A program made the position numbers and the translations under genes. A DNA stretch of 64,000 nt from a phage: sequence record PZ347775.1; one strand, 5' to 3'. The notes under the pieces are model-generated. The model made no database searches, was not told where the DNA came from, and saw nothing but the letters and a program-made list of their open reading frames with translations. Shown one piece after another: positions 25,794 through 36,343 of the stretch (its first letter is position 1; every line of letters begins with the position of its first letter).

Positions 25794-26807
25794 TCATTTA
25801 TAATAACTTCGGTGGTTTTCAAGATAAACCCTCTCAAGGAAGTCATCCCAGAAACCCATGTCTACTTTTTGCTGCATACCGTTCTTAGAAGCTTCAATGG
25901 ATGCTGCTTCTACTTGATCGACCACATCTTCCAAAAACTCTTGAACAGTTTTAAATGGATGCTTACCCAACTTCACGTCGAGAATAAACGGAGCATCTTG
26001 GAGTGGATAAACCAAGTCACCAGTTTTGTAAATTTCCAATAGTTGGAGTCCACCACGACAAGCATGGCTCAAAGCTTTCCAGTCAATGCCCTCATTCGCT
26101 TCAGCTTTACGAGCGCGTTCACCGTATTCGGCATCAAGTTTATTCAAAGACTGCTTAAGCTCAATAAGAGAAAGTGTTGTCTGATATTTACGACCCAACA
26201 CGGTATAGAACGTTTGAGGGCCTGTTTTCTCATGATTATGGAATACCCATTCGCAGAATTCGTTCTCTGGAAGACGATGCTTAATATCTTCAACTTTAGT
26301 GCGACGTTGCTTAATAGAACCATCTTCTTGGTAATCAACCCACTGGTCAGGGATTTGATTAACTACTTTCAATACATCACGTAATGCGGCCAAACGAGAA
26401 CCCTTAACACCATATTTAGAAGCTTGCTTGCGAACATATCCTAAATAGGATTTCATGTTAGTTGTATAAAACCGTGAACGATTGTCTTGAATAAACTTCC
26501 ATACATCAGGCAAATCAGATTTAACTACCAGTTCAGGTGGAGTGTGGAGCATATCCAATGCTACGGTTTCACCATCTGCTGCTAATTTAAAGAAATACTT
26601 AAGACTGTATAGTTCATGGTCAATATCATTTTTAGTGTTTTTAGATGATGTGTTGTTAGTGTTTTTACTCATATGCTCTTTAACATTTCCGATAAGAATA
26701 TCGCGAGCAGGAGGAACAAAGATTTCTTTAAAATCTACATCAGATTCTGGTGTAGAAGTTCCATAAAGATGACTACCAAAATAGCTTTTCATTACTGTTT
26801 TCATCAT
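25794..26807 (-). CDS. putative nucleotidyltransferase (Pol-beta superfamily fold)
   Basis: N-terminal YFGSHLYGTSTPESDVDF (GS-x9-DxD) plus downstream TVALDML third acidic residue; ~200 aa helical C-terminal region. Confidence 0.55.
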   Translation of the reverse strand: MMKTVMKSYFGSHLYGTSTPESDVDFKEIFVPPARDILIGNVKEHMSKNTNNTSSKNTKNDIDHELYSLKYFFKLAADGETVALDMLHTPPELVVKSDLPDVWKFIQDNRSRFYTTNMKSYLGYVRKQASKYGVKGSRLAALRDVLKVVNQIPDQWVDYQEDGSIKQRRTKVEDIKHRLPENEFCEWVFHNHEKTGPQTFYTVLGRKYQTTLSLIELKQSLNKLDAEYGERARKAEANEGIDWKALSHACRGGLQLLEIYKTGDLVYPLQDAPFILDVKLGKHPFKTVQEFLEDVVDQVEAASIEASKNGMQQKVDMGFWDDFLERVYLENHRSYYK

Positions 26808-27265
26808 TCAGCCTTATATTCAATAACAGGACATACTTTAGCTTTACGCGCTTTTAAAAATTCGACGATAATAGATTTCTTTGGTTGAATAGGAGGTAAA
26901 CCTTTATACGCCCTATCAATATTTTCTACATGTAAAGCATAATCCTTTTTCCATTTATAATCTTTATATTTTTCATGCAGTTGTGCAGGAATAACAAATG
27001 AACCGATAATAAGTAAAACAAGCAAAATGGCAAGTATAAATGCCGATGGAATAAGAGTCCATAAACTACCAAAAATAAGCCATTTCTGCATGATTTCTGC
27101 GCAGATGATAGTTAGACCTGCGAGTATAGTACATCCGAAAAAAGAAACAAAAAATGTAGGAATAACAATAGACCAAAAGTATGCACACAGTGTCTTAGGT
27201 CGTTTCCATTCATCATTAAACATTTTGAATAATTTATAGTGCCAAGAGCTTTCATTAATAATCAT
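26804..27265 (-). CDS. membrane protein
   Basis: 153 aa with three or more hydrophobic helices. Confidence 0.5.
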   Translation of the reverse strand: MIINESSWHYKLFKMFNDEWKRPKTLCAYFWSIVIPTFFVSFFGCTILAGLTIICAEIMQKWLIFGSLWTLIPSAFILAILLVLLIIGSFVIPAQLHEKYKDYKWKKDYALHVENIDRAYKGLPPIQPKKSIIVEFLKARKAKVCPVIEYKAE

Positions 27266-27267
27266 AA

Positions 27268-27789
27268 TTATCCTTTCATTGAAGGTGTAACGGTTGTTAA
27301 ATACTTAATCATGGCTTCAGCTTCTGATTTTGATAATGAAATTTCTCCATTGTTTTGACGAATAGAAATAAAATCCGGATGACGGTCACCACCAGCTTTT
27401 AAAACACACATATAAGTATCAGTTTCATCTTCAATATTTGAAATGATTGAAGCAGTTCCGCATGAATGTGGTTTTTGATAAATCAATACAGCTTTTCTTC
27501 CACCGTTTGACTGTTCATAAACTTTTAACACATCAAACAAATCGCTTCTTTTATCAATAGCTAAGATGTTGTTTTCATCTTCAATGTTAAATCCTTCGGA
27601 TACTTCATAAAGTGTCACCCATAAATCGCCAATATCGATAGTAGTATTTTCCTTTCCATGACTTTCAAGAGCGTGACAAATTTTCTTAATTTCGTCATAA
27701 CTCATTTTAACAATATCATCTCCTTGAATAAGGAAGATGTCATTTTTAAATTCAACACGAATTAAACCGCTTTCACTTGAAATAAACAT
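27268..27789 (-). CDS. hypothetical protein, paralog family B member 1
   Basis: 173 aa; GFNIEDE motif and C-terminal SLSKSEAEAMIKYLTTVTPSM shared with next gene. Confidence 0.55.
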   Translation of the reverse strand: MFISSESGLIRVEFKNDIFLIQGDDIVKMSYDEIKKICHALESHGKENTTIDIGDLWVTLYEVSEGFNIEDENNILAIDKRSDLFDVLKVYEQSNGGRKAVLIYQKPHSCGTASIISNIEDETDTYMCVLKAGGDRHPDFISIRQNNGEISLSKSEAEAMIKYLTTVTPSMKG

Positions 27790-27795
27790 ATTTCC

Positions 27796-28362
27796 TCACT
27801 TTGAAATCATAGTTGGAATGACAGAATCAAGATAAGTCTTTAGCGCAATAGCTTCATCTTTGGTAAATGTGACAATATGCGCTCGAAAATCATCAATTTG
27901 ACGAATAGTTAAGACATCTCCTTCTTCATAACATTTTGATACATTTAAAACAGTTTCATCATTCTGATCGCACTGATCGCAAGCGTTAGTAATAATAGCA
28001 TTGCAATTTTTAAGCCATTTTAAACTATGTTTTCTTTCATTAGAATAATAAAAATATTTAATGTAAGTTATAAAATTATCCCAATTATTAATTGATAAGC
28101 ATATTGACTCGCTTTCAATATTAAATCCTGGGCATAAAGAATAAAAATGAATTTTATGCTCATCATTAATGCTTACAATTTTATCGGTGTAAGGTTTTTC
28201 AATTTGGGTTAAATGAATAATTTCGCTAGGCGTAAAATATAGCATATCGTCTTCTTGCGTCAAACGATACATATTATTTACTTTTTCTATAGCCAATTCA
28301 CCAAAAAGTGAACTAACTTCTAGTACTAATCGTTTCATATTGATTCTCTTCGACTCACTCAC
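27796..28362 (-). CDS. hypothetical protein, paralog family B member 2
   Basis: 188 aa; GFNIESE and C-terminal TFTKDEAIALKTYLDSVIPTM. Confidence 0.55.
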   Translation of the reverse strand: MSESKRINMKRLVLEVSSLFGELAIEKVNNMYRLTQEDDMLYFTPSEIIHLTQIEKPYTDKIVSINDEHKIHFYSLCPGFNIESESICLSINNWDNFITYIKYFYYSNERKHSLKWLKNCNAIITNACDQCDQNDETVLNVSKCYEEGDVLTIRQIDDFRAHIVTFTKDEAIALKTYLDSVIPTMISK

Positions 28363-30881: not shown

Positions 30882-31070
30882 TTAGTCCTTAGTTAAATTT
30901 TCTAAATATGTTTCTAAATCATTTTCAGCTTTATCGATAGATTTTACTAATTCGTAGTATGTTTCAGCATCTCCATAATCCGAAGCCAATTCAAAAGATA
31001 AATCTCGTTCTAAACTAATAATTTCGCTGATTAAAAATCGTATTTCATTCTTTTGTTCGCGAGTAATCAT
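30882..31070 (-). CDS. hypothetical small protein (tk.1 position)
   Basis: 62 aa ORF. Confidence 0.4.
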   Translation of the reverse strand: MITREQKNEIRFLISEIISLERDLSFELASDYGDAETYYELVKSIDKAENDLETYLENLTKD

Positions 31071-31273
31071 AAGGAATTTATATAATCAATAAGTTCTTGT
31101 TCTTTATCGTCGAAATCTTTACACAGTTCTTCGTATTCGTCGGTATTAAAAGGACCGCATTCATCGCAAACTTTTTCCAATTCACTATTTTTATCAATAA
31201 CTTCGTGAATAAGAGAAAACAGTCTGTCTTTTTGTTCTTTACTTAAACTCATAACCATGTAACCTTTAAGCAA
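31067..31273 (-). CDS. hypothetical small protein (tk.2 position)
   Basis: 68 aa ORF. Confidence 0.4.
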   Translation of the reverse strand: MLKGYMVMSLSKEQKDRLFSLIHEVIDKNSELEKVCDECGPFNTDEYEELCKDFDDKEQELIDYINSL

Positions 31274-31461
31274 TATTCTTCTACATGTTGTTTACGACCT
31301 TTCTTATCAATAAAGGTATATTCAACGAATGTTCCGATGTAGTCTTTATCTACATCATGTAGACTATTAATTGGGCATTTAGTACGGCAAATGCGTTCCC
31401 ATTGACGAATAATTTCCACTTTATTTTTAGGGTCAAACGGATGTGGGTAATGTGCTTTCAT
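31249..31461 (-). CDS. hypothetical small protein (tk.3 position)
   Basis: 70 aa ORF. Confidence 0.4.
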   Translation of the reverse strand: MKAHYPHPFDPKNKVEIIRQWERICRTKCPINSLHDVDKDYIGTFVEYTFIDKKGRKQHVEEYCLKVTWL

Positions 31462-31912
31462 AATCCACCACTATTAAATCAATATCAGGAGTAAACATGT
31501 CGATTAATTTAGAAACCTTATCCCAATCACCGCCAGCAATACCACAACCTATGCGTGGAATGTAAATTACTGGTTTAAACAAAAGGGTTTCTGCCTGTAG
31601 ATTTAATTCTATCATGCAATTTACTAAAGCACCATAATCAAGATTAGGACCCGGTTCGTATTGCGTATACAGGTTATAGCATATACCAAATCCCGTAGGA
31701 CTATGCTTAAAAACAATAGACATATCGCCTAATTTATCACGAGAACCGTATTCGGTAGTGGTTTTATCTATTTCTAAAATTTTGGGATAGGCTCTTGCTA
31801 ATTGACCCGCTACGCCAGAGCCCATTGTGTGGAAGCAATTGCATCCGTGCGCAATAATATTACCTTGAAGAAATAGGGCGACAATATCGCCCTTGATATA
31901 TTTTACAATCAT
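31433..31912 (-). CDS. macro-domain-like protein (putative ADP-ribose binding/hydrolysing)
   Basis: HGCNCFHTMGSGVAGQLARAYP and PRIGCGIAGGDW resemble the two glycine-rich ADP-ribose-binding loops of macro domains. Confidence 0.55.
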   Translation of the reverse strand: MIVKYIKGDIVALFLQGNIIAHGCNCFHTMGSGVAGQLARAYPKILEIDKTTTEYGSRDKLGDMSIVFKHSPTGFGICYNLYTQYEPGPNLDYGALVNCMIELNLQAETLLFKPVIYIPRIGCGIAGGDWDKVSKLIDMFTPDIDLIVVDYESTLPTSV

Positions 31913-32250
31913 CTAGTACTCAATCCTCGATTATAAGAATCTACCAAACGGTCAACCATTGAATGACAAGCGGCTTTATCTTTCTCCTCCGCAACTGAAC
32001 ATTCTAAGGTATTCCACTTTTTAGCATATCGTTTTAATAAAGTATCATTTTTGTATCTGCTTGATTTATCTCTTTCTCCGTCTTTATATGCATATATTAA
32101 TTTCTGCGCAAATTCAGCTTGGCATGCTTTATTTTTCCCACAATAATCCGCGGCAGTACGGTTTACATACTCTCTAATTTCAGTGTATGATGTATTTGCT
32201 AACGCAGAAAATGAAATTAATCCTACACATAAAACCAAAATTTTAGTCAT
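31909..32250 (-). CDS. small secreted protein with signal peptide (vs position)
   Basis: 113 aa, N-terminal MTKILVLCVGLISFSALA signal-like sequence. Confidence 0.45.
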   Translation of the reverse strand: MTKILVLCVGLISFSALANTSYTEIREYVNRTAADYCGKNKACQAEFAQKLIYAYKDGERDKSSRYKNDTLLKRYAKKWNTLECSVAEEKDKAACHSMVDRLVDSYNRGLSTR

Positions 32251-33316: not shown

Positions 33317-33637
33317 TTATTCTTTAAATCTAATCAATTTATTCATAGACTTTGAAACTTCTGCACGAACCTCATGTAGGTTTTTAAGCTGTTCAAGACG
33401 TTGCTCATAGTAAGCAATTTCATCTTCTTCGAGACAGTCCTGTGAATCTTCTTTAAGATAACGTGCATAATCCTGGAAAGCTTTACGGACTACTTCCTGG
33501 AAGTCATCAAGACTTTGAATTTTCTTAGGAGCAACAGATACACGACGAGGGGCAGTATAATACTCATAACCAAACCCTGCGCTTAATTGAGCCATTAATA
33601 TTTTTCCTCTGGTTGAAACACAGCACGACAAGCCCAC
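33317..33637 (-). CDS. hypothetical protein (vs.3 position)
   Basis: 106 aa ORF. Confidence 0.45.
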
Positions 33638-33861
33638 ATACTAGCTTCTTTGAGTTTCGTTTTAGCAATAGTTAACTGATCGATGCTTTCAGCATAATTC
33701 TTCGCGAATTCATAGTCTTCACAATTATTTAGCACTTCCCAGAATTCGTCGTATAAAGCATCAAAGATAAGTCCTAAACGAACTTCAGCGTCTTTGATTG
33801 CATTCACTTTACCGATTTTCTCTTCAGTATGGGGCTTATAACCTTTAATGTCTTCAATCAT
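33595..33861 (-). CDS. vs.4: probable Acb2, anti-CBASS cyclic-oligonucleotide sponge (vs.4 position)
   Basis: 88 aa ORF at the vs.4 position downstream of regB; from memory T4 vs.4 encodes Acb2; sequence recall is approximate. Confidence 0.6.
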
Positions 33862-35359: not shown

Positions 35360-35464
35360 TTCTGTATTTACCCATTACCGCACTTGGGCTCGACCTTATT
35401 ACAGGTTGGCGGGAATCCCTCATAGAACCATGAGGTCCAGCTTGTTCCCATATTTCTTATTTGC

Positions 35465-35938
35465 TTATTTGAATGATTTGACGTACTGAATAGAGCCTTT
35501 GCTATTCACGAAAGCGATTTTACCATTTTTATTATACATGGTAGCAGTACGCTGATAGCCATAAGTTTGCTTACCAGATTGATAACCAACTAATGCAAAA
35601 TTATCTTCACCCATTTTATTCTGTTTAGCACGAATGCGTTCATGCCCATGCGCCATAAGAACCTTAGCATCACCAGTTGCAATGGATCTACGAGTTTTTT
35701 CATCTTCAACTGTATTAACAAAGTCGTCAAATGAATCAAATTTAGCATGGGATTTATTATACAGTTTTCCATCTACTGCATAATTGTATCCTTGTACATC
35801 CATCTCAACTTCTGTACCATCATCTAATACAGCAGTGATTTTTTGACCTTTTTTAAATTTCAAAAGATCAGTAAAAGATTCAGCAATAATTTGAGAATTA
35901 ATAGCTGCTTCAGTAATAAATTCTTGATATGTTTTCAT
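35465..35938 (-). CDS. internal-protein-like capsid-targeted protein (N-terminal CTS MKTYQEFITEA)
   Basis: 157 aa beginning with the conserved capsid targeting sequence of T4 internal proteins. Confidence 0.65.
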   Translation of the reverse strand: MKTYQEFITEAAINSQIIAESFTDLLKFKKGQKITAVLDDGTEVEMDVQGYNYAVDGKLYNKSHAKFDSFDDFVNTVEDEKTRRSIATGDAKVLMAHGHERIRAKQNKMGEDNFALVGYQSGKQTYGYQRTATMYNKNGKIAFVNSKGSIQYVKSFK

Positions 35939-35954
35939 GTGTATCCTTTAATTT

Positions 35955-36272
35955 TTATTCTTTAGGGAAGTTTTTAGAATATGCATCATAAAGCTTATTT
36001 CCAATACGGCGGAAAACTCTAGCCGCAAAACGATTTTCTGGGTTTTTAATCATGATTTGCATCATATAAGTACCCGCGTCAGAAAGAGCTTCTTCATAGT
36101 ACCCGTTAATTTCTTTAAGAGTCCTACGTTTACCACCAGGACCATCAACAGTGATTTTCCATTTACCTGTAGAAGTGCGACTTGGCGGCTCAACTTGTTC
36201 AATCCAGATATAACCGCCTTCTACACGTTGTCCTTGGGCAGATTCTGCAATAAATTCTTTAAACGTTTTCAT
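35955..36272 (-). CDS. internal-protein-like capsid-targeted protein (CTS MKTFKEFIAES)
   Basis: 105 aa with CTS-like N-terminus, adjacent to e as are T4 ipII/ipIII. Confidence 0.65.
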   Translation of the reverse strand: MKTFKEFIAESAQGQRVEGGYIWIEQVEPPSRTSTGKWKITVDGPGGKRRTLKEINGYYEEALSDAGTYMMQIMIKNPENRFAARVFRRIGNKLYDAYSKNFPKE

Positions 36273-36343
36273 ATGGTTCCTTTAAATATTTTAATTAGTA
36301 ACTATGAATATACTATCACAGTTCTAGGAGAAAGTAAACAACT

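Follow-up and report, generated by a model that had tools for sequence, protein, structure and literature searches.

The gene tk.4 in the window (the whole 64,000-nucleotide stretch of phage DNA analysed here, sequence record PZ347775.1) encodes a stand-alone macrodomain that belongs to the macro domain superfamily (PF01661) and, by its closest sequence and structure neighbours, to the ALC1-like class (TARG1/DarG/Poa1p/SCO6735). Its slot and full-length homology identify it as an orthologue of T4 Tk.4/AdfM, of which it represents a strongly diverged allele. By analogy with characterized relatives, the protein likely removes DarT2-made ADP-ribose from thymidines of phage DNA and so protects the phage against DarTG2. 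The erasure of DNA ADP-ribosylation by phage macrodomains is a real counter-defence mechanism, and the discovery is already on record, since 2025 for T4 tk.4/AdfM and since 2026 for PhiKZ AdfM. The window adds incremental detail, and its residual interest lies in the divergent allele, its cassette-like exchange and the lysine-less chemistry that separates Tk.4-type from PhiKZ-type AdfM.

The role of tk.4/adfM in DarTG2 resistance is not new, since a HIDEN-SEQ preprint has demonstrated that T4 needs tk.4 for it. In that work (bioRxiv 10.1101/2025.11.20.689424, Nov 2025), tk.4 was the sole significant match when a T4 transposon library was grown on cells expressing DarTG2, and T4 became DarTG2-sensitive once tk.4 was cleanly knocked out. 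The gene was renamed adfM (anti-DarT factor Macrodomain), the structural likeness of its product to M. tuberculosis DarG was noted, and ADP-ribose removal from DNA by T4 AdfM was proposed by the authors on inference. T2 and T4 devoid of adfA and adfN are still DarTG2-resistant (PMC11825919), so a further anti-DarTG2 factor is predicted. A note in the T4 GenBank record reads "contains A1pp phosphatase motif", and the gene appears as "macro domain protein" in some phage records, while GenBank and PHROG labels also include "phosphatase", "Poa1p-like" and "hypothetical"; the labels "phosphatase" and "hypothetical" are outdated. A 2026 preprint on the host sRNA ArcZ and phage T2 lists the T2 gene tk.4 as a "putative thymidine kinase" and describes an interaction of ArcZ with its transcript that leaves the protein level unaffected; the T2 Tk.4 protein was seen there by proteomics. 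Neither this preprint nor the CmdTAC paper contains anything on Tk.4 function.

Position and fold of the macrodomain

An earlier note on this DNA had described a 159-residue macro-domain-like product in the tk.4 position with two glycine-rich loops. The reading frame, which begins with ATG, and both glycine-rich stretches were found as described (Table 1), and the position is borne out by synteny with T4 NC_000866, the two genomes having the same gene order (tk, tk.1, tk.2, tk.3, tk.4, vs, vs.1, regB, vs.3, vs.4). Pfam families detected among the ORFs of the window comprised TK, DUF7438 (twice), DUF7202, Macro, SLT, REGB_T4 and Acb2_Tad1_hairpin, and no ORF of at least 40 aa was present on the strand opposite the tk.4 body. 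The gene overlaps both of its neighbours (Table 1), and it therefore lies in a tightly packed, co-oriented gene cluster. The ATGA overlap implies co-transcription of vs and tk.4 and, judged from the sequence, makes their translational coupling probable. A scan for sigma-70 promoters returned 17 matches, fewer than the 23.7 obtained in shuffled sequence.

Table 1. Coordinates of tk.4 and of the features located in and around it
Feature	Coordinates	Strand	Basis
tk.4/adfM CDS, 159-aa stand-alone macrodomain, divergent allele of T4 tk.4	31433..31912	-	ORF, Pfam Macro, T4 comparison
Loop 1, residues 22-43, HGCNCFHTMGSGVAGQLARAYP	31784..31849	-	translation
N80-L-Y82-T83-Q84 motif, Q84 in the catalytic-Lys column	31661..31675	-	hhalign, profile alignment
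Loop 2, diphosphate-binding loop, residues 119-130, PRIGCGIAGGDW	31523..31558	-	translation
Divergent cassette, 42-78% nt identity to T4, flanks 93-100%	31440..31875 (about)	.	sliding-window identity
GC-rich hairpin AGGGCGATATTGTCGCCCT, 7-8 bp stem, tk.4 codons 7-13, 5' edge of cassette	31875..31893	-	sequence
ATGA overlap, tk.4 start codon / vs stop codon	31909..31912	-	sequence reading
29-nt overlap, tk.4 3' end / tk.3 (DUF7202) start	31433..31461	-	sequence reading

The deduced protein matched Pfam Macro PF01661 with 32 bits (gathering score 22, E=1.3e-7) and PHROG 335 with E=9.7e-72, and tblastn detected relatives in 2,789 phage records; the ORF is thus not a chance reading frame. Searching PDB sequences with window Tk.4 retrieved Bt_1257, yeast Poa1p, SCO6735, M. 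tuberculosis DarG and human TARG1, and a 73-member family profile lifted these matches to E-values ranging from 2e-19 to 7e-12. The AlphaFold2 model, computed with the family alignment, reached a pLDDT of 93.7 and a pTM of 0.89, and Foldseek comparison with the PDB ranked TARG1, Bt_1257, Poa1p and DarG at the top (probability 1.00, TM 0.7-0.84). The closest neighbours all lie outside the MacroD, PARG and viral nsp3 classes. The Pfam score above the gathering threshold, the predicted macro fold and the macrodomains heading the Foldseek results, a comparison that the earlier note had proposed, uphold its overall interpretation of the protein as a macrodomain in the T4 tk.4 slot. The theoretical pI of window Tk.4 is acidic (5.0).

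Active-site residues and relation to known hydrolases

Fourteen residues are invariant in the family (H22, G23, N25, C26, G33, A35, D49, N80, Y82, Q84, P119, G122, G124 and W130), the first six of them located in loop 1, and all 14 are the same in window and T4 Tk.4. Residue N25 is the conserved macrodomain asparagine, corresponding to N27 of SCO6735 and N23 of PhiKZ gp104, for which its role has been described (PMC9411070 and PMC13309987, respectively). In loop 2 the window sequence PRIGCGIAGGDW agrees with the family consensus, whereas T4 has the unusual PRIGAGIGKGNW; the core reads GCGIAGGDW in the window versus GAGIGKGNW in T4, and four of the 12 loop positions differ.

Residue Q84 is invariant in 73 phage and metagenome sequences and in 80/80 bacterial relatives. 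When aligned by hhalign with a group consisting of Mtb DarG, Taq DarG, PhiKZ gp104 and T. africanus DarG, the Tk.4 family matched with 98.6% probability (E=7e-16), and its N80-x-x-T83-Q84 motif paired with the N-F-P-T-K of DarG, so that Q84 sits on the DarG catalytic Lys80. In the profile alignment Q84 shares a column with TARG1 Lys84 and the Bt_1257 Gln, and A126 with TARG1 Asp125. For the Q84 column the profile alignment and hhalign give the same result, which also matches a published alignment of SCO6735, DarG and TARG1 based on structure; these two were used in place of pairwise phmmer alignments to Bt_1257, which position the gap near Q84 otherwise.

Close characterized counterparts are SCO6735 and Bt_1257 (PDB 5E3B and 2FG1/2AFC, respectively), Gln-type stand-alone ALC1-like macrodomains with approximately 26-29% identity to window Tk.4. 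With SCO6735-type enzymes window Tk.4 has in common the Gln at the catalytic-Lys position (Q84), the loop-1 Asn (N25) and the preceding His (H22). It lacks the mobile-loop extension by which SCO6735 and Bt_1257 exceed DarG and TARG1 (about 5-6 residues): in the profile alignment Bt_1257 requires an insertion of six residues, and the segment from Q84 to Y92, nine residues long in window Tk.4, has a length of 15 in Bt_1257 and of 12 in the majority of bacterial relatives. In the column of the DNA-positioning Lys34 of SCO6735, window Tk.4 carries S32 and most relatives Ala. Unlike SCO6735 and Bt_1257, the window protein is encoded by a phage and is putatively used in counter-defence. SCO6735 strips DarT-made thymidine-linked ADP-ribose off DNA faster than DarG or TARG1; its Gln85 replaces the lysine, activity is lost in the mutants Q85A, Q85E and N27S, and catalysis is proposed to be water-mediated (PMC9411070). 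The K34E substitution nearly abolishes SCO6735 activity on DNA (PMC9411070), and the positive charge of the DNA groove of SCO6735 has been stressed.

DarG of DarTG2 (PDB 5M3I, 5M31, 7OMU) differs from window Tk.4 in having the catalytic Lys80 within FPTK, where the latter has Gln, and a C-terminal DarT-binding domain, which is absent from window Tk.4. The neighbours of window tk.4 are vs and tk.3, and no darT was found beside it. The match to the NCBIfam DarG equivalog NF048014 reached 27.7 bits, the cutoff being 250, and covered only model positions 2-142 of 338, and the PADLOC DarG model behaved in the same way. An orphaned or truncated DarG antitoxin was rejected as an identity of the protein because of the missing catalytic Lys, the missing C-terminal domain and the score far below the NF048014 cutoff, and this reading is further opposed by the stand-alone state and heterogeneous neighbours of the bacterial relatives.

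These relatives were searched in one genome per species, and at least 505 bacterial loci encode Tk.4-like proteins with 33-44% identity. The best 80 of these loci, from which all details derive, are stand-alone ORFs whose median length is about 152 aa; Gln84 was outside the search pattern, yet it is present in 80/80. Their flanking ORFs were heterogeneous: around the best 80 no recurrent partner was seen, and DarT was not among the 25 most frequent flanking families. The Pelagimonas relative is solitary, too. From these solitary Gln-type relatives it follows that stand-alone SCO6735-like enzymes, and not a truncated DarG, are the source or the sister group of the phage family. The commonest family among the 109 ORFs flanking bacterial Tk.4-like macrodomains was Exo_endo_phos (six cases), which may hint at a DNA-repair context of the cellular enzymes and does not amount to a conserved partnership.

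PhiKZ gp104, also named "AdfM", is a phage-encoded stand-alone macrodomain (about 160 aa) directed against DarTG2; it takes DarT2-made ADP-ribose off DNA in vitro, its N23A substitution reduces activity, and it is imported into the phage nucleus (Cell Rep 2026, PMC13309987). It matches Mtb DarG with E=9e-25 and carries the FPTK motif with the catalytic Lys, and is hence DarG-type; BLASTP against window Tk.4 aligned short patches only. Identity of window Tk.4 with PhiKZ AdfM was rejected on these grounds, and it follows that phages recruited two distinct macrodomain lineages separately under the name "AdfM", of which Tk.4 (Gln-type) and gp104 (Lys-type) probably use different chemistry. Like window Tk.4, PhiKZ AdfM has no Lys34 counterpart (Ala in that place) and an acidic pI (5.05), yet it acts on DNA.

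Human TARG1/OARD1, the top Foldseek match (TM 0.74-0.84), has the same ALC1-like fold and also removes thymidine-linked ADP-ribose from DNA, but its Lys84/Asp125 dyad is replaced by Q84/A126 in window Tk.4. T4 itself encodes AdfN (gp30.3, NADAR), an analogous stand-alone hydrolase that erases DarT-made DNA ADP-ribosylation; AdfN has the unrelated NADAR fold, acts specifically against guanosine-ADPr and DarTG1 and has no activity against DarTG2.

Allelic divergence, predicted function and alternative readings

The 480-nt tk.4 gene is 99.6% identical to those of Tequatrovirus P922 and F13076, and 561 phage records match it at the nucleotide level. T4 Tk.4 has the slot between tk.3 and vs, the fold and the size in common with window Tk.4, but both T4 and T2 Tk.4 are only 58% identical to it (T4: 90/155 residues, with 155/155 aa aligned and no gaps), and the window protein has a C-terminal extension of four residues. 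Per-gene protein identity to T4 is far higher in the neighbourhood (tk 99.5%, tk.3 91%, vs 96%, vs.1 99%, regB 99%; range 85-100%), which makes tk.4 the outlier among about 25 neighbouring genes. Sliding-window analysis of nucleotide identity to T4 gave 100% down to position 31876, followed by the divergent cassette (Table 1), and 93-98% again in tk.3. Comparison with Dhakavirus UGJNEcP4 revealed a different affinity: its Tk.4 is 74% identical to that of the window and 54% to that of T4, whereas in vs.1, vs and tk the window and T4 nearly coincide, each showing 44-70% identity to UGJNEcP4. Being incongruent with its flanking genes, tk.4 behaves as an exchangeable cassette. At 90% identity or more, the window-type allele occurs in 319 phage records and the T4-type allele in 224, with 159 more at 80-90%; further allele classes exist at 60-80% identity, and several classes are of comparable frequency.

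The hairpin at the cassette edge coincides with the switch of T4 identity from 100% to about 75%, and its 19-mer is identical in T4 and in three contigs with the exact window protein. The 96 nt around it show no folding advantage over shuffled sequence (z = -1.39). This hairpin may represent a recombination breakpoint or an mRNA structure.

For the function of window Tk.4, the removal of DarT2-made ADP-ribose from phage-DNA thymidines remains the likely reading, DarTG2 resistance being presumed for this allele from that of T4. The protein would be produced early in infection from the vs-tk.4 message, as the ATGA overlap and the gene packing suggest. In a DarTG2 host, according to the literature, DarT2 ADP-ribosylates thymidines in single-stranded phage DNA, thereby stalling replication. 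The ADP-ribose would then be bound in a cleft between loop 1 (H22-A35) and loop 2 (P119-W130), with Gln84, fixed by Asn25, positioning the distal ribose as proposed for SCO6735, and a water molecule would cleave the ribose-thymine bond and restore normal DNA. Such action by hydrolysis is suggested by homology with SCO6735 and supported by T4 genetics, the support for T4 Tk.4 function being genetic and drawn from a preprint; the lysine mechanism of DarG and TARG1 is probably not used. Confidence in the function of the window allele is limited by its divergence from T4 (58% identity, with four changes in loop 2), by the absence of the DarG/TARG1 catalytic Lys and of the mobile-loop extension, by the missing Lys34 counterpart and by the acidic pI, but the latter two are mitigated by PhiKZ AdfM, which shares both and is active on DNA. 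About 320 sequenced phages carry an allele 58% identical to the tested one, and its activity is not to be assumed. The window-type allele constitutes a natural experiment on specificity, and the placement of Tk.4-type AdfM on a lysine-less SCO6735-like branch points to Q84 and N25 as the residues to mutate. In practical terms, tk.4 helps to predict which T-even phages can overcome DarTG2 hosts and bears on the choice of phages for therapy.

Allelic diversity raises the question of specificity. It is possible, though rather doubtful from sequence comparison, that tk.4 is an arms-race cassette, its deeply diverged alleles (58% identity within one genus) being swapped by recombination between near-identical flanks and having distinct specificities; the specificities in question may include DarT2 variants, uracil-ADPr on RNA, other nucleic-acid ADP-ribosylation or direct binding of the toxin. 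Independently of this reading, the name "AdfM" covers two lineages, which were probably recruited convergently. Somewhat less probable still is that the window protein, as an enzyme of the same class, has a shifted or broader target, its alleles being tuned to one or other of these candidates. The sharp boundaries of the cassette, its outlier status, the comparable frequency at which several allele classes circulate and the unlike diphosphate-binding loops would fit such a shift; however, each invariant active-site residue is kept in both the window and T4 alleles, and mosaic gene replacement, common in T4-like phages, needs no functional shift. What makes it plausible is that uracil-ADPr on RNA is a further substrate of TARG1, DarG and SCO6735 (PMC13036486) and that catalytically dead SCO6735 still inhibits DarT by direct interaction (PMC9411070).

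A metabolite enzyme, either a Poa1p-like ADP-ribose-1''-phosphate phosphatase or an O-acetyl-ADP-ribose deacetylase, is very unlikely, despite the "phosphatase" wording of the T4 and PHROG annotations and the alignment of H22 with Poa1p His23, the residue mutated in PDB 6lfs (H23A), and of T29 with Ser30. Poa1p is no closer to window Tk.4 than the DNA-ADPr hydrolases are, and the NCBIfam O-acetyl-ADP-ribose deacetylase equivalog (YmdB/MacroD) scored 15.7 bits against a cutoff of 291. T4 tRNA repair (Pnkp/Rnl), moreover, is not known to involve a 2'-phosphotransferase step that would yield Appr-1''-p. The T4 knockout phenotype, finally, is DarTG2-specific (bioRxiv 10.1101/2025.11.20.689424). 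We consider it highly improbable that Tk.4 erases the marks of the phage's own ADP-ribosyltransferases (Alt, ModA, ModB), reversing or tuning host-protein ADP-ribosylation or RNAylation. T4-like phages do possess three such transferases, but their target residue is arginine, and to our knowledge the linkages attacked by ALC1-like enzymes involve acidic residues and nucleic-acid bases, not arginine. Alt and a ModA orthologue are mentioned in the preprint in which tk.4 proved dispensable on plain K-12 (bioRxiv 10.1101/2025.11.20.689424), and SCO6735 and TARG1 are somewhat active on ADP-ribosylated proteins (PMC9411070). The degradation or sequestration of ADP-ribose-derived immune signals, such as Thoeris gcADPR or His-ADPR, was among the suggestions of the earlier note and has a parallel in the prediction that macrodomains target ADPr signals derived from TIR (PMC9503650); for window Tk.4 we regard it as the least probable of these readings.

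The surrounding gene cluster

The vs orthologue (31909-32250) encodes 113 aa, compared with 115 aa in T4, owing to a two-residue deletion. This 113-aa protein gave no match in the Pfam copy used, and the 115-aa version of related contigs is assigned to PF26829 (ValRS_modifier). The vs.4 orthologue (33595-33861, minus strand) contains the Acb2/Tad1 hairpin domain (PF24729, E=1e-19) and therefore adds another known anti-defence gene, encoding a cyclic-nucleotide sponge, to the early cluster of tk.4, from which it lies 1.7 kb upstream. On the other side, tk.1 and tk.2 (30882-31273) are paralogues, both belonging to DUF7438, and more DUF7438 copies are located downstream of rI.-1 in closely related contigs; these extra copies indicate a small expanding family of ~60-aa proteins of unassigned function beside tk.4.

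The regions compared for differences from T4 in mobD, denV, ipII and ipIII were window positions ~26800-27800 and ~35450-36300. Neither T4 mobD (homing endonuclease) nor denV (endonuclease V) had a tblastn match in the window. Two ORFs (35465..35938 and 35955..36272) stand in place of the T4 ipII/ipIII region, and T4 IPII aligned weakly (33%) with the former.
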